The translations under genes were made by a program, and so were the position numbers. Under the pieces are notes generated by a model. The model had not been told where the DNA came from, ran no database searches, and worked only from the letters and a program-made list of their open reading frames with translations. A stretch of 37,089 bases of DNA from a virus, in IMG/VR virus record IMGVR_UViG_3300009618_000019. One strand, written 5' to 3'. Of this stretch, positions 669 to 35,432 are shown piece after piece. Each line of letters opens with the position of its first letter. Position 1 is the stretch's first letter.

Positions 669-861
669 GAATCCAGAAGAGGCAATCGCAATCTTAATGG
701 ATACACAAGACGAGCCTCTTGACTGCCACAGGCATTGTTCTCATTGGGATACAGAGGGTGAATGTTGCGGGTGTGGAGACGTTCGCACACCCAATCACAG
801 CTATATTCCCCCCGGTCCTGAAGAGGATGAAGAAGCATCATACGAAATAATTCCGCGCTAA
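649..861 (+). CDS. small acidic Cys/His-rich protein (70 aa), possible Zn-binding
   Basis: CHRHCSH and CCGCG motifs; GGAGG just upstream; stop codon abuts the first inverted-repeat arm. Confidence 0.55.
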   Translation: MYGPFPENPEEAIAILMDTQDEPLDCHRHCSHWDTEGECCGCGDVRTPNHSYIPPGPEEDEEASYEIIPR

Positions 862-975
862 CGAGGGGTTTATAGCCTGGTGGGATAGCGGCTGCGACTG
901 TAAGCCGCTTATCGCTGAAGTTGATCGAGGGTCTGTTCAAGGAGCCCTAACACCAGGCTATAAACCCCTCGTTAG
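858..975. repeat. IR element 1: perfect 25-bp inverted repeat containing the 20-bp motif, 68-bp interior
   Basis: 858-882 CTAACGAGGGGTTTATAGCCTGGTG is the exact reverse complement of 951-975 CACCAGGCTATAAACCCCTCGTTAG. Confidence 0.97.
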
Positions 976-990
976 GGTAAAGGAGAATCT

Positions 991-1140
991 ATGTTCGTTG
1001 AGTTGGTAAAAAAACTCTTGGAAGAGTATGCCCAAGTGTTACAGCGCGGTGGCCTTAGTCCTGAACGTATTCCAGAAGTTCTTCAGCGTGCGCAGTACAC
1101 GCTCGCCAGCCTGCTTGCAAGTGATTTAATTAAGCTCTAG
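991..1140 (+). CDS. small hypothetical protein (49 aa, MFVELVKKLLEEY...), below the ORF-track cutoff
   Basis: ATG at 991 with AAGGAG Shine-Dalgarno; open to TAG at 1138-1140; fills the gap before the next gene. Confidence 0.6.
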   Translation: MFVELVKKLLEEYAQVLQRGGLSPERIPEVLQRAQYTLASLLASDLIKL

Positions 1141-1150
1141 GAGGGACAAA

Positions 1151-2467
1151 ATGAGAACAACGCTTGATTGGAAGGACCTGAAAGAGGGGGATATTTTTAA
1201 GGTTATTATGCCTAGTTTGAAACTAAGAAACATTTTTTGGCGAGGCTCCTCAACTCTTTATACACTTAGAGATCACGTAATCTCTTTAGTGGAAAACCCG
1301 TCGCTTGAGATAACAAAACACCCTTCGCACCCTCAAGCAAACAGCAGCATACAAGGCGCTGTTCAACCAGTAAGGTGTCTTGATTCGCTTCCACCTGTTA
1401 AGATCTTCGAAGCTCTAATGGATCGTGTTAATCGCTATACAGGCAGCGACCCCGAGATTTTCGTTGTGCGCGGTAGCGAACATAAAACACTTCTCCCAGC
1501 TTTTAGGTTCTTGCCGACACAAGAAACACAACAAAAAGCCCATCCACGAGGCGGCGTGATTGGTAATATCGACCAAACATTAACGGCCTATGCTTATCGT
1601 GATGGCTTTGCTGCAGAATGCTTTATTCATCCGGTCCATTGTCACGGTTTTTTAATCAACTACTTACGTGATGGCCTATTGAATGTACTAAAGGCTGCAC
1701 AAACTTTTGATCGTACAGCTAAGCTGACAATCAAGAACACTTTTACCATCCCTGAAATCACCATGCGCAATGCGGCAGAGGAAGACATTGCGCTTGGTTG
1801 TATGCCATCACAGAACGCTTACGATGATTCCCCGAATCTTCCTATTGCAGCACGTAATTTTCATTTGCGCTTCGCAGGTGGGCATATACATTTTGATATT
1901 CTTCCAGCTGGAAGGAACAACTTAATTGAAATGGTTCGCGCATGTGATGTTCTTGCTGCGATTCCCGCAGTTGCAATCTTTGCGTCTATTGACTCACCAA
2001 TACGGCGTCAATTTTATGGACGTGCGGGTGAATATCGTACACCTAAATACGGGTTGGAGTATCGTGTCTTGTCGAATGCCTGGCTTGCAACCCCGGAGGT
2101 TGCACATTTGATCCTCAATCTTACTCGCGTTGGTTTGAAGGTAGGACGAAGTGGTTTTCGACACCTTTTGGACATTGATGAACAAGCAGCACGCGACATC
2201 ATCAACTACTGCGATGTAAAGGCTGCACGTAAGTATGTGCTCGATCACATCAACATGTTCCACGTACTGCTTGCCGGTGACGGTGTTTACAGAGATAAAG
2301 ACACCGACGCCGGATTCAAACGCATAATCGAGGGTGGTATTGAAGCAATCTTCCCTGACTTTGAAGACCTTGCCTCTAATTGGAAACTAAACCAGAATTG
2401 GTTCGGTGAATCGAACAATGGAGCAGCTTTTTGGGGATCATTATGCAGGCGACTTCCAAAGGCGTAA
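1151..2467 (+). CDS. COOH-NH2 ligase type 2 (phiEco32-like amidoligase), paralogue 1
   Basis: Motifs GSDPEIF, DGFAAE, GGHIHF, GEYR, LEYRVLSNAWL; GGAGG RBS. Confidence 0.85.
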   Translation: MRTTLDWKDLKEGDIFKVIMPSLKLRNIFWRGSSTLYTLRDHVISLVENPSLEITKHPSHPQANSSIQGAVQPVRCLDSLPPVKIFEALMDRVNRYTGSDPEIFVVRGSEHKTLLPAFRFLPTQETQQKAHPRGGVIGNIDQTLTAYAYRDGFAAECFIHPVHCHGFLINYLRDGLLNVLKAAQTFDRTAKLTIKNTFTIPEITMRNAAEEDIALGCMPSQNAYDDSPNLPIAARNFHLRFAGGHIHFDILPAGRNNLIEMVRACDVLAAIPAVAIFASIDSPIRRQFYGRAGEYRTPKYGLEYRVLSNAWLATPEVAHLILNLTRVGLKVGRSGFRHLLDIDEQAARDIINYCDVKAARKYVLDHINMFHVLLAGDGVYRDKDTDAGFKRIIEGGIEAIFPDFEDLASNWKLNQNWFGESNNGAAFWGSLCRRLPKA

Positions 2468-2760
2468 CTTATACCGCCGAACGTTGTCCAATGTGTGCGG
2501 AAGGAAAAGTCTTTTCTGAGCATACACAACTCTTTCGAGATTGTACCTTTTGTGCAGGACTTGGGACTGTGTTTCCCAGCCACAAATGTGCCTGTGGTGC
2601 TTCACCAACACAAATTACGTCAGATGGTTTTATGTATTGCGGAAAGAAGGTTTGTCTCGACGACCTGAAACGCGATGCAGCAACGTCTGTTGAATCATTA
2701 GGTTATACAGGCTTTGGTTGGCATAGTCCGAGCGGATATGATTCTCGTTACTCGGAATAA
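2431..2760 (+). CDS. Zn-finger-like protein (start uncertain)
   Basis: CPMC, CTFC, CACG and CxxxxC motifs. Confidence 0.55.
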   Translation: MGIIMQATSKGVTYTAERCPMCAEGKVFSEHTQLFRDCTFCAGLGTVFPSHKCACGASPTQITSDGFMYCGKKVCLDDLKRDAATSVESLGYTGFGWHSPSGYDSRYSE

Positions 2761-3317
2761 GATTGGAGGAGCATCGAAGCGACACGCCAAGGGGTTTCCA
2801 GGGTCAGTGCCTGTTGGGGTCAAACATTGGTAACAATGGGACTGGAAGCTACGCTTGAATGAAAAGATGGTTGCAGCAAGTAAAGTCTCTGTTCGATAAT
2901 ACCTATGTACCCTGTTGTGCTTCGGTACTGACGGCGAAAGGTTATTGTCTACATAACATGCTGCTACTGTTCAACCGGACGTTCATTTAGGGCAACCTTT
3001 GAGGATACGCTTTCGCGAGGCTCCTCCAATAATTTTTGTAAGGTACTGCGGTTGTAGCCGCAGTAGTACGAGTCCACCTGACGCTCATCTTCATTAAAGA
3101 TGAGCACACGTCGCGTGGATTTTCGTTTCTGCGCTTGGGACGCTGTTCCAGGTGTAGACAGAGTTGAGGCCAAAGCGGTGCTAACAAGTACCCCAAGTAG
3201 CTACACTACAGGAACAGGACCGGCCAATCCTGTGCTCTCTGAATAAAAGCGCCTGTACTGCCATGGGAGCTAGAAACCTTCTGTCGGAGAAGGGTGATGC
3301 TCCCGCCAGGATTGAGT
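2761..3317 (+). ncRNA. candidate structured non-coding RNA or leader region
   Basis: No + strand ORF of 60 aa or more between 2761 and 3262 in a gene-dense region; hairpins at 3044-3065 (8 bp), 3083-3105 (9 bp) and 3265-3304 (GGGAGC/GCTCCC plus CCTTCT/AGAAGG). Confidence 0.35.
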
Positions 3318-3431
3318 TACACGAGGGGTTTATAGCCTGGTGCGTAGCCTTTGCGATGTTGCAGTCGCCGGGGTCGGAGGTCTGCTTAAACTGCAACCCG
3401 ACCTCCCACCAGGCTATAAACCCCTCGTGTA
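3318..3431. repeat. IR element 2: perfect 25-bp inverted repeat, 64-bp interior
   Basis: 3318-3342 TACACGAGGGGTTTATAGCCTGGTG pairs exactly with 3407-3431. Confidence 0.97.
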
Positions 3432-3447
3432 TAAATTGGAGTAACGA

Positions 3448-4017
3448 ATGTCCGAGTCTTATAAGGCGTTGAGAGTGCCTGTCGCGTTGTTGCAACAGAA
3501 GGTTTATTCGTATGGACAACGCCTGCCAGCATGGACAGGTATTCTTCTTGATGATAAAGGAAAGACTGTTGTCTCCGATGCTTCGCGTGTAACCAGTCCT
3601 TCGGCAGCTCCACTTGTTGTAGCGCGGAAGGTTGAGCCCGATAGCAACTTATTTACAAACACTCCGTGGTTGCGGCGCTTTTTTTTCTTGGTAGACGATA
3701 AGGAGCGTGTGACATGTCGAAGCTGCTTTGAGATTGCAACAACAGGTGAGGAACGCAAGAAACATACTATTTGTTATAAACCAATTGCGCGAACTCTTGC
3801 TTTGATGGTTAAAGACGGCGCTTGTGCGATTTGTGAACAGAACCTTGATCCTGTTGCAGTTGACAAAGATTTTAATGGCGTTCCTGTTTGTAGTGAGAGT
3901 TGCCTTTTTATATGGGATCGAATGCCCCCGGATTCTTTTGATTTCGAGATGGCTGCCGTAAAAGCAGAGCTTGCAGCCGAAGCTGAGCCTAAGAAGGGGA
4001 TTAGTTATGGCCTATGA
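3448..4017 (+). CDS. hypothetical protein with CxxC motifs (189 aa)
   Basis: GGAG RBS directly after IR element 2; CRSC, CAIC and CSESC motifs. Confidence 0.7.
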   Translation: MSESYKALRVPVALLQQKVYSYGQRLPAWTGILLDDKGKTVVSDASRVTSPSAAPLVVARKVEPDSNLFTNTPWLRRFFFLVDDKERVTCRSCFEIATTGEERKKHTICYKPIARTLALMVKDGACAICEQNLDPVAVDKDFNGVPVCSESCLFIWDRMPPDSFDFEMAAVKAELAAEAEPKKGISYGL

Positions 4018-7361: not shown

Positions 7362-7364
7362 CCG

Positions 7365-7523
7365 ATGTATACACCGAACTGTAATCCTTTCTTCATGTTG
7401 GGAGAACGTTGTCCTGATTGCGGAGAAGCTGAAAATTGCTATCCTGATAACGAGCTACCCTGCGACTATCCAGAGACACTTGAACCGCGTATTTGTGAGA
7501 TGTGTGGTCACTGGGTCAGTTAA
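7365..7523 (+). CDS. small Cys-rich protein (52 aa), below the ORF-track cutoff
   Basis: ATG 7365 to TAA 7521-7523; CPDC and CEMC motifs; fills the gap between GATase and ATP-grasp genes. Confidence 0.6.
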   Translation: MYTPNCNPFFMLGERCPDCGEAENCYPDNELPCDYPETLEPRICEMCGHWVS

Positions 7524-7533
7524 CGAGGTTATT

Positions 7534-8301: not shown

Positions 8302-8703
8302 GGGAGGGGTTTGTGGCCTGGTATGGCATGATCGACTGAATTGTCGAAGCCTGCGGTGTGTCTCCTGCGCCAGGCCACAAATAGGTGATTTATGGGTGTT
8401 AAGAAGCACTTCATTCTTACAACTTCAGATGCGATCTTTGTTGGGCCTGCAGTGCATTATGAGTTGCTGAGGCTTTATGGAATTTGGCGTACAAACTACC
8501 GACTCCCTCAACTTGCAGAAATTCAATGGCCTGTAGGGGGCTGGCGAAAGCGTGTTCCCTTTCTATACCAAATCCTACATGCTGCAGTAAGAGATCGCAT
8601 ATATACCCTACGCGAATTACGCGCCCGAAATCCACGCAAGGAACAAGAATATCGGGATGCACTCGGCTGGATTAAGAACCACCCCAGGCCACAAACCCCT
8701 CCC
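8302..8703. repeat. IR element 3: perfect 20-bp inverted repeat with a covaried motif core (GTG/CAC), plus an internal 12-bp copy of the right-arm core
   Basis: 8302-8321 GGGAGGGGTTTGTGGCCTGG pairs with 8684-8703; CCAGGCCACAAA occurs at both 8370-8381 and 8684-8695. Confidence 0.92.
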
Positions 8704-8715
8704 AGAGGTCGCTAG
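8392..8715 (+). CDS. basic hypothetical protein (107 aa) carried inside IR element 3
   Basis: AGGTGA RBS at 8383-8388; the ORF reads through the right arm. Confidence 0.6.
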   Translation: MGVKKHFILTTSDAIFVGPAVHYELLRLYGIWRTNYRLPQLAEIQWPVGGWRKRVPFLYQILHAAVRDRIYTLRELRARNPRKEQEYRDALGWIKNHPRPQTPPRGR

Positions 8716-13061: not shown

Positions 13062-13183
13062 GAGGGGTTTATAGCCTGGTGGTTATGCTGCGGCGTTAAT
13101 AAATCCGAGCAACGCTTCAGAGGGGTTGCGCCTCGTGTGCCTGGACGCCCCAACAGCGATAACTACCCTGCTATAGACCCCTT
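13062..13183. repeat. IR element 4: perfect left motif, degenerate right arm (15/20), 82-bp interior
   Basis: 13062-13081 perfect motif; 13164-13183 TACCCTGCTATAGACCCCTT; interior ends pair (GTTAT-GCTG / CAGC-G-ATAAC). Confidence 0.85.
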
Positions 13184-14638: not shown

Positions 14639-14817
14639 GGAGGGGTTTTATGCCTGGTGTTCTAGTTGCAAAGTGTGCTGAGTGTGGTGTCTGTGTTCCA
14701 ATTCAAGACACAAAGTTCGTCGGTGGGGTGTGGGTTATAAACCACAAGACAGATTGTTCTCAACAGTACATGGCTAGACCGTTCATATACACAGAACACC
14801 AGGCTACAAACCCCTCC
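14639..14817. repeat. IR element 5: 25-bp inverted repeat (22/25), 129-bp interior
   Basis: 14639-14663 GGAGGGGTTTTATGCCTGGTGTTCT versus 14793-14817; all three mismatches fall in the central triplet of the motif. Confidence 0.9.
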
Positions 14818-21006: not shown

Positions 21007-21133
21007 CGATAGAGGCCCTCTTAACCAAGCCTGGGGCTTGGACATCTCAGAAGCTGCGGCGATAGCCCTGGGAATGAAGAAAGCAGGTATCGCTAAACTT
21101 GCAGTAGAAGTTCAATGTGAGAGGGGTTTATAG
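20843..21133 (+). CDS. RlpA-like double-psi beta-barrel lytic transglycosylase (probable start ATG 20843)
   Basis: SWYG, TASG, TAASRTLPFG, INDRGP, LDISEAAA; overlaps DUF5664 by 164 nt in another frame; its stop codon lies in a motif copy. Confidence 0.75.
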   Translation: MIVSWYGRKAEGRTTASGQRFRWRTLTAASRTLPFGTRLRLTFPTTGKSVIVSINDRGPLNQAWGLDISEAAAIALGMKKAGIAKLAVEVQCERGL

Positions 21134-21140
21134 CCTGGGG
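21121..21140 (+). repeat. IR element 6, left arm (19/20 motif)
   Basis: GAGGGGTTTATAGCCTGGGG; partner at 22712-22731. Confidence 0.92.
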
Positions 21141-21146
21141 GTTGCT

Positions 21147-21626
21147 GTGAAACAAAGTGAGAAGTGGGATAGACGTTATCTCGAACTGGCTAAGCATGTT
21201 GCCACATGGAGCAAGGACCCATCTACTAAGGTAGGGGCTGTTCTAGTTAACTACGAACAGAAGAAAGAGTTCGTAGGCTATAACGGCTTTCCAGAAGGCG
21301 TTCAGGATTCACCAGAACGCTACAACGACCGCGAGATCAAATACAAGTTTGTTGTCCACGCAGAAGTTAACGCCATCCTTAAAGCAGGCGGCTATGCACG
21401 GGGCGCAACTTTGTATATCTATCCCAGCTTTTCATTGCCCCCGATCTGTAACGAGTGTGCCAAAGTTGCAATACAAAGCGGCATTAAAGAAGTCGTTGGT
21501 TATTCGCCAGATGCGAACGATCCGCGAGTAAAGCGTTGGGCCGAAGCTATTCTAGTTTCTAAGAGTATGTTCGAGGAAGCAGGCGTGTCCTGGAGAGCGA
21601 TTGATGAAACAAACAGAGATTCATAA
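21147..21626 (+). CDS. dCMP deaminase family protein (probable GTG start 21147)
   Basis: SKDPSTKVGA, GYNGFP, HAEVN, PICNEC Zn-binding motifs. Confidence 0.9.
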   Translation: MKQSEKWDRRYLELAKHVATWSKDPSTKVGAVLVNYEQKKEFVGYNGFPEGVQDSPERYNDREIKYKFVVHAEVNAILKAGGYARGATLYIYPSFSLPPICNECAKVAIQSGIKEVVGYSPDANDPRVKRWAEAILVSKSMFEEAGVSWRAIDETNRDS

Positions 21627-22464
21627 GCTGCAGGCTGCGTTCGAGCGTTACTTTACGCTTACTACAACACGCCCAACAGCAGTTCGTTATTGTAAATCAC
21701 TTACGTCTTTCTTTTCCCGCTTCCCCGACAAGGCGCGCCCTGAAGAATTTACACGCCGTGATGTTGAAGACTTTCGCATCCTACGGCTTCGTGAGGGCGT
21801 AAGTCCTCGAACAATCAACTATGAACTTGGAGTCTTACGTCAATTTTGGGCGTGGCTTCAACAGATGGAGCTTGTTACATGGAATCCGGTTACACAAGTC
21901 AAACGGTTGCGCGAGCGGGAGTCCTCCAAGACATCATTAAGCGTACAGCAGCAATTGGAGCTACAGAAGGGGTGTTACTGCTGGGCGGACCGTGCACTGG
22001 TTGGTTTAGCATTGACTACTGGGTTGAGGGGGGAGACCCTTGCTTCCCTAGAGAAATGCGAGATCGACTTCGTGAGGCAGTGTCTAACTATTCCAGCGAC
22101 GAAGATGAAGACGGGAAGGAACCACGAGATACCTCTGCCGCCTTGGGTTCTGAAATTGTTGGAGGAAGCGCCTGATGGTCGAATCTTTGCGGATTACGCA
22201 AAAGACACCAACTCAGTTCGTTATAGATGGGGCTGTATATGCAGACGAGCCGGAGTCCCTACGAAAGGAATCAGGACGGCTCGTAGAACGTTTGCTACAA
22301 CTTTGCTTAGAAGCGGAGCCGACCTTAAACTCGTGCAGGATTTACTTGGTCACAGAAACATTGCGACCACTAGTAGATACCTCACCCCTGCAGATAGCCA
22401 AACAACCAGAGATGCTGTAAACCGCCTACCTATCCCGGAGGAATACCTTGAGCGATCTGCGTGA
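21601..22464 (+). CDS. tyrosine recombinase/integrase (XerC/D-like)
   Basis: N-terminal core-binding region (SPRTIN), TGLR, ARRTFAT, LLGH, TTSRY; the HxxR box reads RTAR. Confidence 0.92.
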   Translation: MMKQTEIHKLQAAFERYFTLTTTRPTAVRYCKSLTSFFSRFPDKARPEEFTRRDVEDFRILRLREGVSPRTINYELGVLRQFWAWLQQMELVTWNPVTQVKRLRERESSKTSLSVQQQLELQKGCYCWADRALVGLALTTGLRGETLASLEKCEIDFVRQCLTIPATKMKTGRNHEIPLPPWVLKLLEEAPDGRIFADYAKDTNSVRYRWGCICRRAGVPTKGIRTARRTFATTLLRSGADLKLVQDLLGHRNIATTSRYLTPADSQTTRDAVNRLPIPEEYLERSA

Positions 22465-22711
22465 AATGATGGATGCAGTCCGTGAAGTCTTCATGGGCGC
22501 GGAGTGTATGGGCTATAATTGCGAGAAGGGTTTTTGCATCTATTGGCCTACTGACATAAGCCCTATCATCGCAACAGGTCAACATCCAAGAAAAGCTTGG
22601 CGCAATGCTTATAAGCTGGTTAAGGGGAAGAACAAAAAAGCCCTAGAGAAACTTAAAAAGTCTCTACTAGAGCAGGAAGTTAAGAAGGGTGGATATGGTC
22701 CAGGTGCATAA
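22448..22711 (+). CDS. hypothetical protein (87 aa)
   Basis: GGAGG RBS and TTG start; stop codon abuts the motif at 22712. Confidence 0.6.
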   Translation: MSDLREMMDAVREVFMGAECMGYNCEKGFCIYWPTDISPIIATGQHPRKAWRNAYKLVKGKNKKALEKLKKSLLEQEVKKGGYGPGA

Positions 22712-22731
22712 CACCAGGCTATAAACCCCTC
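22712..22731 (-). repeat. IR element 6, right arm (perfect motif, reverse orientation)
   Basis: CACCAGGCTATAAACCCCTC. Confidence 0.95.
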
Positions 22732-22760: not shown

Positions 22761-22764
22761 AGTT

Positions 22765-26100: not shown

Positions 26101-29100
26101 CCACTCTTCAAACGCTTTAAGGTATTTACTGTACTTTGAAGTGCGTTTTCGTCGCCTGCCTTTAACTTCGAGACGAAGAGTTTAAGCGCACCTACGTAAG
26201 CTTTAGGTAAATCCTCCGAGGATTCCCCAAGACGCTCGCGTAGAACCTGCTTTAACAATGGAAAAGCACCTTCCGTTTGTTTAGGAAAGGCCTCACGTAT
26301 TGCAGCTTCTGCCTTATTTGTTGCAGCTAAAAGGCTAGAACTCGTACCTTCCGTGTTCGGGGCGACAGGACGGACTTCGGCGCTGCTTGCTGCCGGGGTC
26401 GCTTCGGTGGTCGAAACGGGTTTTTGAACGACGGTGGACGCGACGGCGTTGTTGGCTTGGGCTCCAGTATGCTTGGGGTCATATAATTCCTTCGGCAGTT
26501 GCGCCTTTATGGCATCAGGTAAAGCATCAATTTCCTGTGCAAGCTTGCTGGGTTTAGACGTACCACTCCGCTTCGCTTCCCACAAAGGAACTCTATCACG
26601 TAATGCTTGTGTTCCGCGTTCAATTGCAGCTTGCAGAACAGCCTGGTGTCCACGCATCTGCGCTTCATGCCAAGCTTCGTTACGCATTCCAAGACCGGCT
26701 TCATCTGCGGTTACTACACTAAGGCCATTTGTATCTAGTGTAGATGCTAGTCCTGCGCGCGCTTTAGGTGTAGAAAGATTATATTCTGCAGGAACCCCAT
26801 TCGTTCCAACAGCCAAAGCGTTAGGAAGAACAGCGCCTTGATTTTGTTCCTCGCGTTCGACACGCATACGATCTTCGGGAGACATAAGCTCCCGCAAGTT
26901 GCGAGCGTTCTTTAGGCCTGCTGCTGTAGCATTCTCAGGATTGATGTGAGCTAGTGGCTGAACAGCATCTGTGTTCTTGCCTGGTTTCTTTCCAACCTCT
27001 AATTTAGATCGAAGATCATCATACTGCTGCCCAGACAACCTCCACTCACCATCTTCGTTATAAAGAGACTCTGGTACAACCTTAAGCGTTTTCGCTACCG
27101 CATCAACGGTAGCTTTTTCTTTTGTATCTAATGCTTCGTACTTCGCGTTCGTATCCAGAAAAGGATTGTCTGGACCACCTTGCAATTCTGTAGGTGGCGT
27201 CCATTCAGGTGCACGTTTCTTAAACTCCGCAAAATCTTCGTCGGAAAAAAGTTGAGTACCTGCTTTACGGACAGCATTCTCAACATGAAAACGATCCTCA
27301 CCAGCCTGCTTTAGTTGCGTAAGCTTTGCAATCGTCTGAACAACCGGACGAAACTCTCCCTCCATCGCGTTAGCCTGCGCAATGTTGCCACGTGGTTTTA
27401 CTTGGGGCTTAGGCGTTGTGGGCGTTTGCTGGGAGGGGTTTATGGCCTGGGGTTGGGGGGTCTCTGCGGGCGCTCGTTCTGCTTCGGACTTTATCGTAAA
27501 GACCTTGGCAGGAACCTGCTCTCCCTGGCGGGTTGCATACTCTGCTCGATGAGTTCCATCATAGAGATAGTCTCCATGATCTGTACGCAATACCTCAACC
27601 GGAGGCATGTCTTTTACATTGGCTCCAGCCTCCTGCCAATCTGACAGCTTCTTTTCATTCGTCCAATCCTGCACCCGATGCAGCGTCGAAGGATCGATAT
27701 TCTCGTTCCCGACAGAAACTACAGAAGTGTTGGGTTGCTTTTCAAGCCATGCAGATAGAGTATAGCCACTGTTCTTTCCCACCTTAAGCATTTCCAAAGT
27801 CTTTGCATCAGGCTTGGGCTTTGGAACTACAGGCGCAGCCTCCGGAGCTGGTTTATCAAAATCCAAAGGCATCTGCCAAGGATTCTCAGGAAACTGAAAA
27901 GCCGTTTGCGCAGAAGGACCTTCAGGAACACCTGCTGCACGTTCCTCGGGAACCAGACTTAGCTGGCGGGGTTCATTTGGAAACAACCGCAGTTGTCCGT
28001 TCGCTTCAGCCAGTGGAGGCTGTGCAGTAATTTTTTGTTCCGGTAACTGCGACCAATCAAAAGAACCTTGTACAGGCGGTGTCGGTAGGGCATTTCCTTC
28101 AAACGGTAGTTGTAACTGTTCAGGATTCCTCATGGGCGGAACGTTAGGCGGTGGAATATTTATGGTTGGAGCTGAAGAAGGACGCCTTGCAGCATTTTGT
28201 GGAATATCACCCCAAGGCCTTAAAGCCGTAGGTGCACCAATTTCTCTACCGTTCGCATCATACGGACGTAACCAAGGCTCATTTGGATGCTCTGCCATCT
28301 GTCCCCGCAGATAACCAGGAATTATTCCTTCCCAGTAAACAGGGTTGTTTGGATCGACGCGCGGCCCCACAAATGGTTTGGAACCCTTAAAGACACTTCT
28401 TCCAGCTAAAGCAGTCATAACAGCACCAGCAACACCCGACCCTGCTGTTTCGGCCTGCGCTTGAGAAATTCGATCTATTGCTTTTTGGTATTCAGGAATT
28501 TCAGAAGTACGTCCATATGCTTGTGCATCTTGAAGTGCTTGTTGATATGCTTGTTTCTGTTTATGAAGTTCGATTTCCTGTGAGCCTGCTCCAACGACGG
28601 CCTTGCCTCCTTGTGCTGCAAAATAAGCAGGAAGAAGTTTTTCAAGAACAGGTGTTAGTACTGGAGCAACACCACTTGCAGCTTCTCCTACAGGTCCCGC
28701 CATCTTCATTGTAAGAAGGCTGCCCGGTGTTGTCAAACCGCTTACAATCTTCGCTGCTCCTGTTCCAAAAGATCTTACTGCACCAGGCCGTTCTGCACCG
28801 CTTTTACCAACATTCGCCATCTCCTCAAAGGAGAGTGTTTGTCCGTGTTGACGGTCTGCATCTTCAGTCAACGGATTCAGATGCGACTGCATCCAATCAG
28901 GTGCGTTTGGAAAGTTCCTCCGAACAGCATCACCGAGAGATGTATTACGAACCGTGTTTAGTGCAGACTCCCAAAATCCGGGAGTATGTGGGCCAACAGT
29001 ATCAGACGGCTGTGGTAATGCAGCTGGCTGTCTTGTAGGCAAGTCAGTATATTGCGTATTTTTACTAGGCGGAAGGTCCGTATAAGGAGGCATTATTTCC

Positions 29101-29102: not shown

Positions 29103-30412
29103 GTACCATCGGCTTGCTTTGTCAACCCCGACGCTGGATCGCGATAACCGACAGGTGCGGGGTTGTTATTATTCGACTTTGCTTGCTTCTTCGGCTGCAC
29201 GTTGCTACCGGGTGTCGTAAAGGCATCCAGTTTGCGCTTGCTTTCATTCACAGCATTTGTAAGAGCTTGCCGCTTAGTGTTCTCTTCTGCAGTAGTATAT
29301 AGGAACTGATTCTTCGCAACTTCCGATTCAAAGGCTTGGAGCGCCTGAGCAGCCGTCCTATTCTCTTCCTTTGCTGCATTAAGAGCATCTGTATCGGACT
29401 TCGATCCCGCACCAATGTTCGCTACAGTAATTCTGCCACTATTAGCAACCTTAGCAACGTTGAGCTTACTCTGATGCTCTTCGTTAATCTTACGTTGTAA
29501 AGCAGAACTGTGTGCTTCGATATAAACAACAGGGTCCACATTGTATGGATCGCCACCAGCATCTTGAAGCGCCTTGTCTACCTTTGCCTGTTCCTCTGGA
29601 TTAAGCGCCACATCCTTCATCATCTGAACAAGTCCAACATTCTGATGGAAGCGCAGCGTCTGGGCCACAATATTTGCCTGTGTGCGCTTGATGTCGTTAA
29701 GCTCTTCGCGCGTTGCATCCATGTCTCCATAGTGCTTAACAAGGGCATCATCGCGTGCGGCTTGAGCTTGCTCGAACTGCTGCTTAATCTGTTCGCCCTT
29801 CAAACCCGCAACCTGCTGCGCCTGCGCGAAAGGCATCATTAACTGATTGTTGTACTTTTCCGCGCGCGCCGCATTAGAGTTTAACATCCCCTGCGCAACG
29901 TTACTAATCCCTTCGCCCCAGGTTCGACTGCCCTGCGTAAAGGCAGCACCTTCCAAACCACGTTCTATCATCTCCGACAGAACTGGATGGTTCACATGGG
30001 CTGCAGGATTTGTAATGAACATATCCGGGCTGGCACCCTGCACTGTAGACTGTAGTTGTTCCGGCGAGATTCCATACTGGCCCAACAGCTGTTGAACCTC
30101 TGGGTGCATAAGAACATCTGGGCTCATAACGCCAGGCATATTCATACCAGGCTGCCCACCAGGCCCCAAACCCCTCCCACCAGCCGTCGCCTTCGGGGTT
30201 GGATAATGTTGACGCACAGCCATTGAATCCCGCAGCATCTCGGTTCGCGCAGGTGAAACTTCAGGCTTACTAACCTCTTGTTTTGGAGGAGGGGGTAGCT
30301 GGGGTCCAGTAGGATCGCCCCCACTCAGCAAAGGATCAAGCCCAATTGCACTACCGATTGCATGTACAAAAGCGTTGTAGGAGTCGCCTCCCGTACCAAA
30401 TGAGAGTGCCAT
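29093..30412 (-). CDS. probable internal virion/ejection protein (439 aa)
   Basis: Gly/Gln/Ala-rich with coiled-coil character; synteny typical of podovirus ejection genes. Confidence 0.65.
   Translation of the reverse strand: MALSFGTGGDSYNAFVHAIGSAIGLDPLLSGGDPTGPQLPPPPKQEVSKPEVSPARTEMLRDSMAVRQHYPTPKATAGGRGLGPGGQPGMNMPGVMSPDVLMHPEVQQLLGQYGISPEQLQSTVQGASPDMFITNPAAHVNHPVLSEMIERGLEGAAFTQGSRTWGEGISNVAQGMLNSNAARAEKYNNQLMMPFAQAQQVAGLKGEQIKQQFEQAQAARDDALVKHYGDMDATREELNDIKRTQANIVAQTLRFHQNVGLVQMMKDVALNPEEQAKVDKALQDAGGDPYNVDPVVYIEAHSSALQRKINEEHQSKLNVAKVANSGRITVANIGAGSKSDTDALNAAKEENRTAAQALQAFESEVAKNQFLYTTAEENTKRQALTNAVNESKRKLDAFTTPGSNVQPKKQAKSNNNNPAPVGYRDPASGLTKQADGTWK
30157..30176 (-). repeat. motif copy inside the 439-aa ORF (17/20), right arm of putative element 7
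   Basis: CACCAGGCCCCAAACCCCTC; the mismatches are confined to the central triplet. Confidence 0.65.
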
Positions 30413-31096: not shown

Positions 31097-31434
31097 TAGA
31101 GTACCTTCTTATATCGAATCATTGGTTCAGGACTAATCGGTTCAGCACCAAGTCTTTCAATCACATTTCTATAAACAGTATCCGCGGCGGGAATGTTAAA
31201 GTAAACTTCAGTCACGCCTTGAAGACGAAGTGCCGTTTCCAAGTTGGTTAGAAAGAACAGCTTACGCTTGTCCGAAGTTTCTGGATCAAAAACAAACTGA
31301 TCTAACTCGCGACAAATCCTATGTACAGCAAAATCTTTACCCCCAAAGGTAACAACTGTTGATGTCGGAGTTATATCTAATTTATCCGCAATGGGATTTA
31401 CTTCATCTACAGTAGCGAGTCTTATTACGTCCAT
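31096..31434 (-). CDS. GNAT-like virion-assembly-associated protein
   Basis: IRLATVDE start and YRNVIERLGA near the end resemble GNAT edges; located between tail and ejection genes as in many podoviruses. Confidence 0.5.
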   Translation of the reverse strand: MDVIRLATVDEVNPIADKLDITPTSTVVTFGGKDFAVHRICRELDQFVFDPETSDKRKLFFLTNLETALRLQGVTEVYFNIPAADTVYRNVIERLGAEPISPEPMIRYKKVL

Positions 31435-31444: not shown

Positions 31445-31464
31445 GAGGGGTTTATAGCCTGGTG
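31445..31464 (+). repeat. orphan perfect motif copy
   Basis: GAGGGGTTTATAGCCTGGTG; contains the TAA stop of the 31452-31676 gene on the minus strand. Confidence 0.95.
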
Positions 31465-31847: not shown

Positions 31848-34699
31848 TAAATCCTCGCCATCGGGTAAAATTCAAGACTGAAGCTTGTAATAGCTTGTGG
31901 AACTATCGGACCATTGCTGGATGATAAAGCAATGGAATAATACTTTGCCGTTGTATTTGCACCCGCACAGTAGAATTTCTTAGAGCCAAGAGAGCTAATG
32001 GGGCCTGTCTGTGTGTTGCCGGTCTTTAGAACGGTGCCACCGTTATTAAAATCGAGTTGCGAAGATGCTCCATAAAGTGTCACAGTAACAGGTGTATCCG
32101 CTGCTATAACCTCAATCTCGTTAATTGTTTTGATTGCCGTAGAATCTCCGCAGTCCTGCCAAGAGGTTTGTATATTCCAAGGAATTGAAGTGGTTGATGT
32201 ATAATCGTAACTCTGCACAGGATTGAAATAATTAACACCAAACAAGTTTCCACCATAAAAGCCGCCTCTTGCTTGTAGCTGGGGAAAGAACAAGTATTTC
32301 GAGCCTGGCGTAAAATCAGGTGCCGCTGTATATGAAGGGAACTGATAAACAAAACAAGCAGAGATGGTAAAACCTGCACCGCTTCCAAGTGTAAGTTCCC
32401 ACCGATACCACTTTTGTAGACGTGACTCCCAAAGCATAAAGATCGGAGCTGTTTGGCTTGTCAGGTAGAGTTCAAAAAAGACAAAGTTGTAAGGTCCTTC
32501 AGTCAACGCCGCAATTTTATGAACATTTACTTTCGCGGGATCGAGTGTCTGAAAGATGGGATAAACCGGCGTTCCAATTTCTCGATATGTCGAGAAATCA
32601 GAGTGCATTACTTTGAAGTCTTGTGTAATCCAAACAAAGCCTGCGGGCATACCTTCGGCATAAATAACAGTCCAAGCATCATTACTTAGAATACCTGTCT
32701 GTGCGAACGCCATGGAAGGAACTGAAAAATCTGAAGGACCAGAGCCATAAACAGTAAAGATGCTTTTATCGGTCCCGATGTGTAGATTAACACCATCAGA
32801 CTTCAAGCCGATAATTCTTTCATTGTTAAGCGCCACTGGAAGTTGATAATCACCAGGCCAACACTCTTCCCATTTGGAAGTGATCAGACCTGTTGCAGTT
32901 GTAACTTCTTCCAGGCTCTTTGAATAAAAAACAGTTTGTCCATCTGTTGCAAAGAGACGCCCTTGATGTTGTACTACATACAAGAAACCATTCGCTATTG
33001 GTGGTGTATTTAAGAGAATTCCGAAGGAGTTACCAGAAGGATCAGTGTAAGCCCACAGATCGGCTTCCAATAACGTATTTGTAATGTTGTAAGTGTTATT
33101 GGAATTATTCCAGGAATCTGGAAGATTGTCGTATACTTGTAACTTGTAAAAACCACCAGCCAACGTAAATGTACTCAGAGGATAAATATTAACCTGGTAT
33201 AGTGTTCCTAAACCGCCACCATCTGAAGAAGCTAAAAGAACAACCGTGTCAACTTGTGGGTCTATATTTGCAGCAGGAATTGAGATAGTTAAGTCGATTT
33301 GTGTAAAGCCTGCGGTTTGGTCAGCTGACGAAATATAAACAGGAATATCGCCAAGCGTCGCATCTACAGCCTGAATTAAGCCGCTTGTTAATGTATCAAA
33401 GACAGTTCCTGAAGTCGGTCCGTAAGGAACATCTTGTATCCATACATCTGAAGTATGGCCTGTCAAACTATTTTGAAGAGCAACTGTCCACTGTCTACCA
33501 CGCACAAAGCTCATAGGTCCCGCAACATCTGCACCTACAATTGTACCCGGTCCATAAGCATTTGTATTGACTTGCGTATAAACAGTAACATAACCCTGTG
33601 TTCCACCTGCAGGGGGTGCCGGAACAGTTACGTATCCTTGTGTATAATTTGCACCAGGAACAGAAACAGCAACCTTAACAATTGCTCCATTGCTGTCGGT
33701 ATAACAAATAACCTGTCCTCCATGCCCAGTGCCACCGGACACGTCTTCTACATTCAAAGTAAAGCTGGTGTTTGCACCGTAGCCTAAACCACTACCGCCT
33801 GTGCCAGTTCCACCTAGACCGCTGGATGGTACTTGTACCAGTTCAAATGTTGCTGGAGGACTTCCACTGGGCGTTGTTAACATGTCAAAAACAGTATATC
33901 CAGAGCCCCAAGAAAGAACGTGGAAGGCACCGATCGCATTTGAATAAGTAATAGAACCTGGACCAGAACCTGAGAAAACAGTATCTATTTGTATATCCAA
34001 ATTGGTTCCACTCCCTCCTAAAAGAGGTAGAACCTGACCTGCATAAAAGCCGCCTCCACGATTAAGTAAAGCCAAAATCCCGTTTACAATAGTGCCAGAA
34101 ACACCCGCAGGAAGAAGAACACATGGATAGTTTTGATAGTTTGTAGAACCGGGCGCAGAAGAAGGAATTGCAATTCCTACAAGGCTATTAGTGTTCTTTG
34201 TTGTATAACTAGGATTTACTTTACTAGGCGCATCAATGTTATTTCCATAATAGAACCAGCCCCGACTTGTACATGCCGATGTATAGCCACCTGAAGTGCT
34301 AAAGTTGGTTGGTTTATAGCCTGTAAATAAACTTCCCGAATCATTATAGACTGCAAAGTATTGATCGTTTGTCATGATCCAAAGATTTGTGTTTGCAGTA
34401 TTTACTACATCAGAACTAAGCTGTGGATAATTGTAAGGAAAAACCCTGGTAATCAATGCGTTCGTTGGTGCTGTAGAGGTTGTCGAAGGTGTAATTGCAG
34501 TTGATAAGCCCCAACGCCTGTTGAAACCTCCGTTGATGGCGGGACAAACATTTGTTAGGTCAAGAAAGGCCTGTGTGTTATTACTCGGGCCTGCTGCAAA
34601 AACATCCATGCCTGCGTCGGACATATACTTCCACACAACACGGTTGTTATGGCGTAAGTACCAACCCCAAAAGTCCGATGTTTGTGTTGTATGAGGCAT
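31847..34699 (-). CDS. probable tail nozzle/tubular-B-like virion protein (950 aa) with a Gly-rich central insert
   Basis: Size, beta-rich composition, and position between adaptor-like and ejection genes. Confidence 0.6.
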   Translation of the reverse strand: MPHTTQTSDFWGWYLRHNNRVVWKYMSDAGMDVFAAGPSNNTQAFLDLTNVCPAINGGFNRRWGLSTAITPSTTSTAPTNALITRVFPYNYPQLSSDVVNTANTNLWIMTNDQYFAVYNDSGSLFTGYKPTNFSTSGGYTSACTSRGWFYYGNNIDAPSKVNPSYTTKNTNSLVGIAIPSSAPGSTNYQNYPCVLLPAGVSGTIVNGILALLNRGGGFYAGQVLPLLGGSGTNLDIQIDTVFSGSGPGSITYSNAIGAFHVLSWGSGYTVFDMLTTPSGSPPATFELVQVPSSGLGGTGTGGSGLGYGANTSFTLNVEDVSGGTGHGGQVICYTDSNGAIVKVAVSVPGANYTQGYVTVPAPPAGGTQGYVTVYTQVNTNAYGPGTIVGADVAGPMSFVRGRQWTVALQNSLTGHTSDVWIQDVPYGPTSGTVFDTLTSGLIQAVDATLGDIPVYISSADQTAGFTQIDLTISIPAANIDPQVDTVVLLASSDGGGLGTLYQVNIYPLSTFTLAGGFYKLQVYDNLPDSWNNSNNTYNITNTLLEADLWAYTDPSGNSFGILLNTPPIANGFLYVVQHQGRLFATDGQTVFYSKSLEEVTTATGLITSKWEECWPGDYQLPVALNNERIIGLKSDGVNLHIGTDKSIFTVYGSGPSDFSVPSMAFAQTGILSNDAWTVIYAEGMPAGFVWITQDFKVMHSDFSTYREIGTPVYPIFQTLDPAKVNVHKIAALTEGPYNFVFFELYLTSQTAPIFMLWESRLQKWYRWELTLGSGAGFTISACFVYQFPSYTAAPDFTPGSKYLFFPQLQARGGFYGGNLFGVNYFNPVQSYDYTSTTSIPWNIQTSWQDCGDSTAIKTINEIEVIAADTPVTVTLYGASSQLDFNNGGTVLKTGNTQTGPISSLGSKKFYCAGANTTAKYYSIALSSSNGPIVPQAITSFSLEFYPMARI

Positions 34700-35346
34700 T
34701 AAACAGTAGCCGTCCCCTTCTTATACGCTTCATATTGCTGCGTCCAGAACTGTGCTTCCTGATCCAGGTGCAAGAACTGCGCAACATACTGATTTACTCC
34801 TGCAACTATCATATCCTCGCCGTCGTTAGGTACTAAAAGTACCTGCGACAGTGTTGTTACATCAGGCGCCTGAATCTCATAATGAACCTCGTAGGTCCCA
34901 TTGAAAGCAGCCTTCTGCGGAGCCGGAAAAAGCTCCAACGTATTTGCGCCTTCCAAGTGATAATACTTGGGATACTGCGCCATCGTCTCTGCGTTCAACA
35001 TCTCAACAGGGAGCTGTGCAGCCTGACGAGGAGAGCTTTGATCCCCGAGATTTGTGGGATATATAATACCTTCGACAGGCAATATAATCCGATCAAACGT
35101 ACGATCATAAACAAGCCCAAGTCGCCGAATCGGTCCTGCTCCATTAGCCAAAGTATACGAAGAAGTTCCGTTTACAACTGAAATTGTTTGTGTCGCGTGT
35201 AGCAGGAAGTTATAAATTCCTGTATGAAGCGCGTCCTTCTGGATACGATCCACCCACGACAGAAACAAAGAAGAATCCGGCGATGTAGGGGCCAGAACAT
35301 TTCTAAAATCAATCGAAGATGCGTTAACTATATCTTGTGCTTGCAT
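34699..35346 (-). CDS. head-tail adaptor/tubular-A-like protein (215 aa)
   Basis: Synteny; clear paralogy with the 35445-36944 protein. Confidence 0.6.
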   Translation of the reverse strand: MQAQDIVNASSIDFRNVLAPTSPDSSLFLSWVDRIQKDALHTGIYNFLLHATQTISVVNGTSSYTLANGAGPIRRLGLVYDRTFDRIILPVEGIIYPTNLGDQSSPRQAAQLPVEMLNAETMAQYPKYYHLEGANTLELFPAPQKAAFNGTYEVHYEIQAPDVTTLSQVLLVPNDGEDMIVAGVNQYVAQFLHLDQEAQFWTQQYEAYKKGTATV

Positions 35347-35361
35347 TTAAGCTCTCTATGG

Positions 35362-35432
35362 GAGGGGTTTATGGCCTGGTGGTTGGGTAAAGTAATTCAA
35401 ACCAAAGCACTCAACCAGGCTGAAAACCCCTC
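35362..35432. repeat. last IR element (8th pair): 19/20 and 17/20 motif arms, 31-bp interior
   Basis: 35362-35381 GAGGGGTTTATGGCCTGGTG and 35413-35432 AACCAGGCTGAAAACCCCTC, intergenic in the virion operon. Confidence 0.9.

Follow-up and report, generated by a model that had tools for sequence, protein, structure and literature searches.

A near-invariant, asymmetric 20-base repeat occurs in 16 to 33 copies per genome in a group of uncultured phages, mostly in inverted pairs that occupy intergenic gaps but also as single copies, one pair enclosing the gene of an Xer-like tyrosine recombinase. The tentative interpretation (probability about 0.35) is that a phage protein, probably the recombinase, reads the repeats as DNA sites that mark cassette junctions. 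What was observed directly, in the window, the whole 37,089-nt stretch of virus DNA analysed (IMG/VR record IMGVR_UViG_3300009618_000019), and in its relatives, is the family of sites with its layout, its conservation and its co-evolution, the pair around the recombinase gene and the gene-content changes that abut the sites; the family is supported as real and functional.

Repeat sequence and copy number

The window was scanned with the motif GAGGGGTTT-NNN-GCCTGG(TG), which gave 16 matches with up to 3 mismatches and none in 100 shuffles. Seven copies are perfect, and R13164, with 5 mismatches, is a seventeenth (Table 1), in agreement with the 17 copies, 7 perfect, and the coordinates of an earlier note. 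That note had placed the variation in the central triplet; the 15-base core, GAGGGGTTT...GCCTGG, is intact in 16 of 16 window copies, which vary only at positions 10-12 and 19-20, and the same 15 positions are identical across 85 sites in 8 genomes. The motif is an asymmetric site of 20-22 bp in which a short variable centre separates a box GAGGGGTT(T) from a box GCCTGG(TG). A logo of the sites revealed no internal dyad symmetry within a single motif, and the boxes are 1 to 6 nt apart across the family. The 2-bp flank beside the boxes is genome-specific (AC at 30/30 sites of G002 and G004), and centre and flank are homogenised inside each genome. The spread is genome-wide, as claimed: a complete relative has about 22 sites in 64.9 kb.

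Table 1. Copies of the repeat (F, forward form; R, reverse form) and neighbouring genes along the window.
Feature	Position	Strand	Remarks
F copy, pair 1	863..882	+	Perfect; starts 2 nt past stop of ORF 649-861
R copy, pair 1	951..970	-	Perfect; start at 991 is 20 nt on, ribosome site between
F copy, pair 2	3323..3342	+	Perfect
R copy, pair 2	3407..3426	-	Perfect; start at 3448 is 21 nt on
F copy, pair 3	8304..8323	+	Centre GTG; starts 3 nt past stop of ORF 7534-8301
Partial R copy	8370..8381	-	CCAGGCCACAAA on + strand; direct repeat of 8684-8695
107-aa gene	8392..8715	+	Between partial and full R copies; full R copy translated within gene
R copy, pair 3	8682..8701	-	Centre GTG; start at 8716 is 14 nt on
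F copy, pair 4	13062..13081	+	Perfect
R copy, pair 4	13164..13183	-	Decayed, 5 mismatches
F copy, pair 5	14640..14659	+	Centre TAT
R copy, pair 5	14797..14816	-	Centre GTA; RNase H-like gene at 14838 is 21 nt on
F copy, pair 6	21121..21140	+	Own TAG is stop of DPBB-domain ORF
dCMP deaminase gene	21147..21626	+	Inserted between pair 6 F copy and recombinase
Xer-like tyrosine recombinase, 286 aa	21604..22464	+	52-75% conserved in relatives
87-aa ORF	22448..22711	+	Travels with recombinase; TAA stop abuts R copy
R copy, pair 6	22712..22731	-	Perfect; convergent junction
In-frame copy	27433..27452	+	1983-aa virion protein gene; PQAINPS, aa 548; R form on coding strand
In-frame copy	30157..30176	-	439-aa gene; RGLGPG, aa 79; F form on coding strand
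Unpaired copy	31445..31464	+	Perfect; R form, 10 nt ahead of start of minus-strand gene 31096-31434
Pair 9 copy	35362..35381	+	R form on coding (minus) strand; 15 nt before start of gene 34699-35346
Pair 9 copy	35413..35432	-	F form on coding (minus) strand; 12 nt after stop of adaptor gene 35445-36944

Layout of the pairs and matching of their arms

F and R copies alternate in 15 of 16 steps along the window (p = 6e-4, permutation). The exceptionless alternation claimed earlier held there, apart from the orphan F31445, which indeed lacks a partner within 600 nt, and failed in relatives, G001 having at least 5 unpaired copies. Along the reading direction the order is stop codon, F copy, filler of 8-150 nt (unconserved, sometimes holding genes), R copy, ribosome site and start codon. 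The pair interiors in the window measure 68, 64, 358, 82, 137, 1571, 2704 and 31 nt; two lengths given before, 362 and 129, were corrected to 358 and 137, and the other six stood. The interiors are unrelated, as had been stated, also between orthologous elements of different phages.

The pair-specific extensions were recovered, CTAAC and TACAC lying outside pairs 1 and 2 and TTCT inside pair 5; complementarity runs to 25 bp in pair 1 (via CTAAC/GTTAG) and in pair 2 (including TACAC/GTGTA). Partners share the same variable centre in 11/22 cases against 3.7 expected, which upholds the proposed co-variation of the arms, and in an orthologous hairpin ATA was changed to GGG in both arms. Stems of 25-27 bp without mismatch are formed by 11/22 short pairs. 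Late-region pairs contain 3x3 mismatches; the arms of pair 5 mismatch 3x3 because of their differing centres, and the centres of pair 9 also mismatch.

This arrangement suits a role in RNA, the chief rival reading, which is possible but somewhat doubtful. An F and an R copy in one polycistronic mRNA would form a 20-27-bp stem as a target for cutting or binding by host RNase III or by a phage factor, with effects on cistron separation, on mRNA ends and stability or on translation of the downstream gene. Consistent with this, the elements occupy the gap between stop codon and ribosome site in one-directional operons, their predicted folds are much more stable than those of shuffles (z = -8.6 and -10.3) and long enough for a T7-type RNase III processing site, partner arms match in variable centres and flanks, and the loops vary freely. 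GAGGGG looks like a ribosome-binding sequence and CCCCTC like the complement of one. Hairpins that act in this way at the RNA level are known from T7 RNase III sites and from the Correia elements of Neisseria.

Structure alone, however, would not need 15 invariant bases, nor would it account for copies that are conserved without a pairing partner. The unpaired copy at 31445..31464 has a counterpart in the corresponding position of G001, G004 and G006, and there too it stands alone. The copies within genes occupy shared linker positions in three virion protein families and up to seven genomes, and in-frame pairs lie 1.2-2.7 kb apart within translated genes; the position of 27433..27452 is conserved in G001, G003, G004, G006 and L304 and that of 30157..30176 in G001, G003, G004 and G006. 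A new in-frame copy in the G006 DNA polymerase cost three amino-acid changes. The phage sigma promoter is GAGTCAAAA-N11-CGTCTAATA, distinct from the repeat sites, and some copies fall outside its transcript because they lie upstream of it. Wobble pairs number 1 on the sense strand and 4 on the antisense strand, with no sense-strand G:U excess, and the mismatched late-region pairs also argue against an RNA stem. No Rfam family matched at the gathering score; the only hits were two below threshold, pairs 1 and 2 matching mir-28 at 39 bits where 64 are required. The closing stem on RNA put forward earlier is not favoured, with no wobble support and with single, in-frame and extra-transcript copies left unexplained. 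The 20-27-bp doublet stems probably do form in mRNA, since the doublets are co-transcribed; such stems may be incidental or may serve an additional function.

A recombinase gene within a pair

The suspected link to a recombinase proved stronger than claimed: an F..R pair encloses the gene in every genome checked, among them the window, G001, G004, G006 and L304. In G001, G004 and G006 bases 18-20 of the F copy form the GTG start codon of the gene; the F copy there serves as ribosome site and start of the gene, a fact that fits the RNA role as well. In the window and in G001 the 87-aa ORF ends 0-2 nt before the R copy. The result is a compact unit of F copy with start codon, recombinase, 87-aa ORF and R copy abutting the stop; in the window a two-way terminator-like hairpin (22739-22761) follows. 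The dCMP deaminase, which starts 6 nt past the F copy in the window, is missing between F copy and recombinase in G001, G004 and G006, and its G002 homologue is inside a different F..R bracket. The recombinase has Phage_integrase/SAM-like domains, and its closest solved structures, over the full length, are XerA/XerC-like; the match to IntI4 covers 48 residues only, and the protein has 286 aa against 320 residues in the solved IntI4 chain.

The unit resembles an insertion sequence, and the repeats could be selfish or domesticated mobile elements, REPIN- or MITE-like, with the recombinase cassette as the autonomous copy, from which the short, non-autonomous doublets would derive. The 10-30 doublets per genome, the decayed singles, the within-genome homogenisation and the variable presence of hairpins at syntenic places would agree. 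We consider this origin improbable, as the interiors share nothing and range from 8 to 150 nt, the flanks are inverted rather than direct target duplications, the majority of copies are old, and the recombinase gene, present once per genome and passed on vertically, shows the same degree of conservation as core genes.

Relatives and gene turnover

The repeat family is a trait of a phiEco32/SU10-like phage lineage. The motif was found at syntenic places in at least 10 related viral contigs, and most copies, single ones included, are syntenic and old, being kept across phages whose proteins are about 50-60% identical. In more distant relatives the motif takes co-varying forms with a shorter spacer or an altered second box: in G006 (recombinase 52% identical) the spacer is shorter, and in L304 (41%) the motif is GAGGGGCTT-N-GGCTCA, also alternating. 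The motif was absent from two outgroup genomes; in the motif-less outgroup G412 the recombinase is reduced to an N-terminal-domain remnant. One Acidobacteriaceae genome has a small island in which three exact copies mark off segments. The island encodes its own tyrosine recombinase and a serine recombinase, and an AAA_25 helicase-like gene is flanked by sites both there and in the phages. The cargo of one segment is antisense to its neighbours, which speaks against an RNA hairpin.

Where relatives have gained or lost genes, the change is mostly next to a repeat site. Gene 8392-8715 sits between the duplicated 12-bp part of a site, the partial copy directly preceding its ribosome site; G001 has the same layout and a homologue 44% identical. 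The Ro60/methyltransferase and RNA-ligase blocks of G001 adjoin hairpins. Hairpins themselves can be there in one relative and missing from the syntenic place in another: pair 2 has no orthologue at that place in G001, and G002 has additional hairpins. The inversion proposed earlier was not seen: ten collinear relatives displayed no inversion, excision circle, deletion, permuted order or other rearrangement. Interiors had the same orientation in three orthologous hairpins, and three assemblies of the window's own phage were identical through pair 1, without rearrangement.

Tentative reading as DNA sites

Under the favoured reading, a sequence-specific phage-encoded protein would recognise the motif on DNA, the best candidate being the Xer-like tyrosine recombinase. 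Sites would mark boundaries between gene modules; an inverted doublet would be two partner sites, or might refold as a single duplex site in single-stranded DNA, as in integron attC and CTX phage attP; and recombination at the sites could lead to gain, loss or relocation of adjoining cassettes. The invariant core lies in the perfectly paired 25-27-bp stems of the best pairs. Few base-specific contacts are available in a regular RNA duplex, whereas reading through the DNA major groove is usual. The conserved single and in-frame copies, the copies outside the transcript and the missing sense-strand G:U excess count for recognition on DNA, as do the recombinase bracket, the matched centres, the lineage co-evolution, the gene changes at sites and the Acidobacteriaceae island; the shared variable centre and homogenised flank resemble the overlap regions of recombinase sites. 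Against a recombinase acting on DNA stand the lack of a dyad and the box spacing of 1 to 6 nt, unusual for a tyrosine-recombinase core site, the absence of any rearrangement among the relatives, L302 (recombinase 43% identical), in 20 kb of which the motif was not found, and the co-occurrence of motif and intact recombinase, which is essentially a single evolutionary contrast. With 16-33 sites, recombination would destroy the genome unless it were regulated, and the order stop-F...R-ribosome site suits an RNA role too.

Some of this evidence would also fit operator or roadblock sites for a non-recombinase phage regulator, cf. the stoperators of Cluster A mycobacteriophages, with protein on each copy and doublets permitting looping or two-sided blocking. 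The sites are asymmetric and invariant with genome-specific flanks, single copies lie closely upstream of genes, copies within genes are tolerated, the possibly satellite-like Acidobacteriaceae island has the same site, and the sites differ from the phage sigma promoter. We think it unlikely nonetheless: a candidate regulator was not found, the match of partners at variable positions and flanks is left without reason, and stop codons and ribosome sites, not promoters, are where the sites lie, with no sigma-70-like promoter in the interiors. Very improbable is a signal in single-stranded DNA, in which hairpins on the lagging-strand template or entering DNA would start priming or transcription in the manner of plasmid ssi/Frpo elements or N4 hairpin promoters. 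Doublets could rebuild a duplex site there, a primase was not recognised in the window, and the helicase-like gene is site-flanked in phages and island; yet single copies cannot fold, a PDB profile search gave no virion RNA polymerase signal for the giant protein, and sites are present in early and late regions alike.

Comparison with known repeat systems

No described repeat family fits the paired repeat. CRISPR, MITE and REP had been excluded before; CRISPR was excluded again here, and the repeat also failed the tests applied for MITE and REP: the copies are inverted with irregular spacing, 31 to 2704 nt, unlike a CRISPR array; for a MITE, the interiors are unrelated, 8-150 nt, and the flanks prolong the inverted repeat; for REP/REPIN with RAYT, there is no internal dyad and the flanked gene is Phage_integrase/SAM-like rather than Y1 (HUH). 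The tests applied for integron attC failed as well. The flanks are AC/GT or GG/CC, genome-specific, rather than RYYYAAC ... GTTRRRY, the outer-end consensus of which only pair 1 approaches (CTAAC/GTTAG), and 15 invariant bases and perfect stems in 11/22 short pairs replace an imperfect stem with extrahelical bases. A lox/FRT/dif-type core site, with inverted arms and a fixed 6-8 bp spacer, does not agree with unrelated boxes 1 to 6 nt apart. A shufflon (sfx/Rci) is disfavoured, with no long reverse-strand ORF in 27453-30156 and no inverted arrangement in relatives, and an intrinsic terminator or PeSL was rejected, the elements having no T-run after R copies and no sigma-70-like promoter match in the interiors.

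REP/BIME and REPIN with RAYT are alike in their conserved short arms, inverted pairs, less conserved spacers, intergenic position, decayed singles, genome-specific variants and single-copy enzyme gene between inverted copies. The phage arm, in contrast, is not palindromic, lacks a GTAG-type tag and encloses wholly unrelated spacers, and its pair flanks an Xer-like tyrosine recombinase rather than an HUH (Y1) transposase, in a phage rather than a bacterial chromosome. In the R64 shufflon a single tyrosine recombinase, Rci, works on asymmetric sfx sites that are about 19-20 bp long and alternate in orientation, the asymmetry limiting recombination to inverted partners. The phage sites share the asymmetry, length, alternation and a single candidate tyrosine recombinase, but are genome-wide, without alternative frames or seen inversion, whereas shuffling in the shufflon concerns the 3' ends of proteins at a single small locus. 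Correia (NEMIS) and ERIC elements are likewise co-transcribed long hairpins, about 100-150 nt in length and bounded by terminal inverted repeats of 20-26 bp, and Correia hairpins are cut by RNase III; unlike the phage repeat, these elements have shared interiors and target duplications and are chromosomal, with no linked recombinase.

Integron attC sites and phage attC clusters (PMC9892861) are also imperfect, hairpin-capable inverted repeats of about 60-170 nt past gene ends, with variable middles, an Xer/IntI-branch tyrosine recombinase and cassette turnover alongside. They are read by structure, with a weak RYYYAAC/GTTRRRY consensus and extrahelical bases, whereas the phage repeat has 15 invariant bases, its best stems are perfect, it may hold cargo in the loop and its recombinase is 286 aa and XerA-like. 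T4-type PeSL cassettes (PMC2839356) are a repeated regulatory module beside accessory genes with modular shuffling; they consist of a sigma-70 promoter and terminator stem-loop in direct orientation and recombine by homology, while the phage repeat has inverted pairs and neither promoter nor U-tract. The dispersed repeats of mycobacteriophages (Cluster A stoperators, Cluster K SAS/ESAS, PMC3203893, and the Cluster O 17-bp palindrome, PMC4351075) are similar in having 20-35 near-invariant sites per genome, mostly at gene boundaries and some intragenic. The Cluster O site (PMC4351075) also has a variable central triplet but is itself palindromic, stoperators have one orientation, and SAS (PMC3203893) includes the ribosome site; the phage repeat is set apart from all of these mycobacteriophage repeats by its long inverted doublets and by bracketing a recombinase.

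Motif in the window and in related genomes

An earlier note had described a 20-base motif that recurs across the window in two alternating orientations, F and R, as pairs enclosing unrelated segments. The motif scan of the window with the 20-mer GAGGGGTTTATAGCCTGGTG gave 16 matches at ≤3 mismatches, against 0 matches in 100 dinucleotide-preserving shuffles, and a 17th, decayed copy at 13164 with 5 mismatches. Fifteen bases (GAGGGGTTT + GCCTGG) were exact in 16/16 copies and changes fell only at positions 10-12 and 19-20, in keeping with the reported concentration of variation in the central triplet. F and R alternated in 15 of 16 steps (permutation p = 6e-4), and F31445, considered an orphan, had no partner within 600 nt. 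Pair interiors measured 68, 64, 358, 82, 137, 1571, 2704 and 31 nt, so that, on matches, alternation and interiors, the initial description was right except for two spacings, which had been given as 362 (now 358) and 129 (now 137).

Relatives were found by an exact-pattern scan of IMG/VR, in which about 10 related contigs carried many motif copies. G001, a complete 64.9-kb phage genome with terminal repeats and ~22 sites, is syntenic with the window at ~50-80% protein identity. G006 is also a complete genome; its recombinase is 52% identical, and its 33 motif copies are of a form with a shorter spacer, GAGGGGTT-N(1-3)-GCCTGG. Further variants were present on contigs with polymerases 53-61% identical, except L219, where none occurred in 6.3 kb. 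Contig L304, with a recombinase only 41% identical, carries the form GAGGGGCTT-N(2-4)-GGCTCA in five copies within 12.5 kb (order + - + - +); one of them occupies the corresponding position in the giant protein gene, and a pair flanks the recombinase. Two outgroups (polymerase 37-42% identical, one complete) had no such motif family. The logo of 85 sites from eight genomes contained 15 invariant positions and no dyad symmetry, and the -2/-1 flank was genome-specific (AC in 30/30 sites of the related genomes G002 and G004; GG in most G001 sites). From the invariant positions, the genome-specific flank and the lineage variants, we conclude that selection on the motif is very strict and that it co-evolves with the phage lineage. 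The 20-bp repeats are a real, conserved and undescribed family of cis-elements.

Outgroup G413 (L299-L301), without the motif, has repeated 12-13-mers of its own (CGGCCTCGGGCC 9 times, GGCGGTTTTTCATA 7 times), which could be an unrelated punctuation system.

Gene content of the phage

The window represents part of the genome of an uncultured podophage, distant kin of the phiEco32/SU10 group. It had no megablast match in 50,697 phage records, no close relative among deposited phages and no tRNA genes. Annotated features are listed in the table. The ligase/amidotransferase module is bounded by motif pairs 1-3. The MazZ-like and DPBB ORFs overlap in different frames, and the two domains also adjoin each other in outgroup L222. 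The Tlde1-domain protein is kept in G001, in the related genome G003 and in G004. For the N-terminal ~525 residues (window 27858-28118) of the giant virion protein, up to its in-frame motif copy, no homologue was detected in any relative; the protein beyond that copy is conserved.

Table. Coordinates of annotated features, promoter-like motifs, in-frame motif copies and the bacterial island
Feature	Location	Strand	Remark
phiEco32-type COOH-NH2 ligases, three paralogous, and class II glutamine amidotransferase	window 1151-10814
Sigma-like protein	window 9038-9607
Family A DNA polymerase	window
PD-(D/E)XK nuclease	window
AAA_24 protein	window
RNase H-like protein	window
MazZ-like pyrophosphatase (dATP/dGTP diphosphohydrolase N-domain)	window 20527-21006		Pfam match
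DPBB lytic-transglycosylase-like domain ORF	window 20573-21133		Pfam match
dCMP deaminase	window
Tyrosine recombinase	window 21604..22464	+	286 aa
SU10-type adaptor	window
Giant virion protein	window		1983 aa
Tlde1-domain (L,D-transpeptidase-like effector) protein	window 22765-23145	-	just after giant virion protein
GAGTCAAAA-N11-CGTCTAATA	window 10831, 12913; G001 ~53090-53130; G002 ~16960-17000
GAGTCAAAA-N11-CGTCTAATA	G004 ~500-540 and ~1720-1760
In-frame motif copy	440-aa protein family, aa 75-82
In-frame motif copy	giant protein, aa 440-550
In-frame motif copy	210-aa virion protein, midpoint
Island	L106, Acidobacteriaceae MAG CAWJRQ010000007, ~32-40 kb

Placement of sites and recognition as DNA or RNA

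Along the local genes the order is stop codon, 2-13 nt, the F form (GAGGGG...), an interior of 8-150 nt or of one to several genes, the R form (...CCCCTC), 8-20 nt holding the ribosome site, and the start codon. Ten of the 16 window sites are non-coding, compared with 6.5% of the window. The interiors had been called unrelated, and orthologous hairpins of different phages likewise keep their arms and have no interior sequence in common. The proposal that arms evolve as pairs was borne out: the variable centre was identical in both arms of 11/22 short pairs, where 3.7 are expected from each genome's own site pool, and complementarity often extends 2-6 bp past the core on both sides. After the 70-aa gene, for example, both arms of the hairpin have ATA in the window and G001 and GGG in G002. 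Pairs with 55-130-nt interiors all lie in the early region and are nearly always perfect, and the late-region pairs with 8-40-nt interiors have mismatched centres. Predicted RNA folds of pairs 1 and 2 reach -76 and -74 kcal/mol (z ~-9 and ~-10).

This placement and these stems fit RNA hairpins like those of RNase III sites or Correia elements, serving in processing or stability, and we regard such hairpins as possible but somewhat unlikely. Set against them is, first, the strict invariance of the bases within helices that are perfectly regular; on general structural grounds, this would point to reading as DNA. Second, single copies are conserved and new ones have evolved. Those of G001 (1227, 7441, 11190, 61286) and the window (31445) are all R forms relative to the local genes and, with the exception of G001 1227, are found immediately upstream of a gene; a number of them are likewise unpaired at the same place in other genomes. 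In G006 a copy has evolved inside the DNA polymerase, changing EQQLPE to EGLLPG. Third, the in-frame copies, which sit in Pro/Gln/Ala-rich linkers in up to seven genomes, are 1.2-2.7 kb from any partner. Fourth, the copies at G001 53020, G002 16912 and G004 450 are upstream of GAGTCAAAA-N11-CGTCTAATA, and therefore outside the rightward transcript. This bipartite motif recurs upstream of genes in several relatives and probably serves the phage's own sigma-like protein as its promoter (for phiEco32 and 7-11 promoters, see PMC8948821). Fifth, contrary to a companion note, wobble pairs were not in excess on the sense strand, with 1 sense against 4 antisense. Sixth, genes bracketed by the motif in a bacterial island (see below) are antisense to their neighbours. 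On the invariance, the single, in-frame and off-transcript copies, the wobble count and the island, recognition at the DNA level is slightly favoured overall, and recognition at the RNA level is given distinctly lower odds. Operator or roadblock sites are a quite unlikely alternative use of the motif, and signals in single-stranded DNA are scarcely credible.

Several other identities for the motif were considered and rejected. A known RNA family found no support in Rfam, which gave just sub-threshold mir-28 matches. The phage sigma promoter is a different, bipartite motif, and pair interiors contained no sigma-70 promoter or terminator. A virion RNA polymerase with hairpin promoters was dropped, since a profile of the giant protein matched nothing in the PDB. 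For a Y-RNA/Ro reading, the Ro60-like protein and RNA ligase occur in G001 and in no other motif-bearing genome, and so cannot be the general reader of the motif. In the G001 early region, the Ro60-like protein (TROVE + vWA domains; L068:3197-4546, minus strand) and the RNA ligase (L068:7311-8486, minus strand) are a phage-borne RNA repair/quality-control module.

The recombinase and its bracket

Our leading reading, held tentatively at a probability of about 0.35, is that the motif copies mark cassette junctions as DNA sites on which the phage's Xer-like recombinase acts. The enzyme is a simple Xer-type recombinase whose best solved relatives, XerA and XerC-like, match over the full length. 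Its tight family comprises ~80 clusters at ≥41% identity, on contigs up to ~65-69 kb; beyond this family, similarity falls sharply to 31%. The recombinase is as conserved as the core genes. The gene lies inside an F..R bracket in the window, G001, G004, G006 and L304. Its GTG start is formed by positions 18-20 of the F copy in G001, G004 and G006, and in the window and G001 the R copy lies 0-2 nt past the stop of a co-travelling 87-aa ORF, for which informative relatives were not found. The locus is thus a compact architecture, with an enzyme gene between its own putative sites. At the same junction, outgroup G412, without the motif, has only a 235-aa ORF on the other strand, which has the recombinase N-terminal domain in common (36% identity over 85 aa). 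Contig L302 encodes a recombinase 43% identical, yet has no motif in 20 kb, which counts against strict coupling of motif and recombinase; its recombinase gene is isolated between terminators and neighbours a second integrase. L302:10001-12263 belongs to a 69-kb relative of 61% G+C, with the recombinase on the late-gene strand and a second integrase of 377 aa. Sub-lineages differ in the direction in which the recombinase gene points at the convergent junction.

Gene turnover and rearrangement

Gene content changes beside the sites. The window has a dCMP deaminase as an insertion that falls precisely between F21121 and the recombinase; its G002 homologue lies in a different bracket, beside an AAA_25 gene, fused to that bracket's R copy. 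Gene 8392-8715 is located between a partial and a full R copy with 12 bases, CCAGGCCACAAA, in common, and the same arrangement surrounds its homologue in G001, so the event is old. The G001-specific blocks (methyltransferase + Ro60; RNA ligase) are each directly beside a hairpin, one of which is itself only in G001. After pair 5 the window has an RNase H-like gene that is absent there from G001, and G001 has extra genes after the pair-4 site. The left border of the terminase bracket varies between genomes: the bracket contains AAA_25 through TerL in G001 and TerL alone in G006, and in G002 and G004 an additional R copy divides it. By our own count, in a small sample, ~6/8 of the differences in gene content that separate the window from G001 adjoin a site.

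The DNA inversion raised in the earlier note was not seen. All relatives were collinear, with no rearranged gene order; three orthologous hairpins with recognisable interiors had the same orientation; two other assemblies of the window's phage were identical through pair 1; and the 2.7-kb bracket held no reverse-strand reading frames for a shufflon-like switch. Recombination at the sites is therefore inferred and not observed. An independent assembly of the window's phage, L306 (ENA ERZ27250177 contig, 572 bp), breaks off precisely where pair 1 has its outer end, which could be due to low coverage or to a graph branch at the element.

Island in a candidate host

One Acidobacteriaceae assembly contains three exact copies inside an ~8 kb low-G+C island encoding a tyrosine integrase, a Cro/CI-type HTH regulator, an AAA_25 protein and a serine recombinase. 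Elsewhere in that genome the motif was not beyond chance; five single matches, approximately the chance rate, came from 400 further Acidobacteriota genomes; and, among the matches listed, a species-wide genome scan gave scattered single matches as by chance, the island assembly excepted. The island shows that the motif is in use by a second kind of mobile element, which could be a satellite or prophage remnant. Acidobacteriaceae as the host of the phage is a lead only. For the genomes searched, a host REP-like or Chi-like element was rejected, the candidate host genome having the motif in one island only.

Implications and comparison with known systems

Phage genomes are mosaics, and to our knowledge dedicated module-exchange machinery in phages is known only as fragments: PeSLs, phage-carried integron parts and shufflons. 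In this phage lineage one site, conserved very strictly, recurs as punctuation along the entire genome; it co-evolves with the lineage, brackets the lineage's own recombinase and sits at gene-content changes. Extending the leading reading to genome-scale site-specific recombination is unlikely in our judgement. The Xer-like recombinase would read the asymmetric 20-bp site wherever two modules meet, and also between domains within virion proteins; co-infecting relatives could then exchange cassettes and protein domains, or these could be inverted on demand, and chromosomal islands with the same sites would plug into the phage recombination system, as in an integron or shufflon stretched across a whole virus genome. 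If the recombinase reads the sites, they would represent programmable self-rearrangement of a virus and an orthogonal pair of recombinase and site, the centre of the site varying naturally, and proof of that link would have substantial upside; if they act on RNA, they would be sequence-specific mRNA punctuation of a kind not described in phages.

In line with the earlier note, none of the known families tested fits: the 20-bp repeats fail at least one defining feature of each. A selfish repeat of the REPIN/MITE type is very doubtful. The likenesses are to REP/REPIN doublets with a flanked enzyme gene, integron attC sites (examples in phages, PMC9892861), shufflon sfx sites, PeSL cassettes (PMC2839356), Correia/ERIC elements and the dispersed repeats of mycobacteriophages (PMC4351075, PMC3203893), and we rate the 20-bp repeats as belonging in a group with the known dispersed inverted-repeat families at gene junctions.
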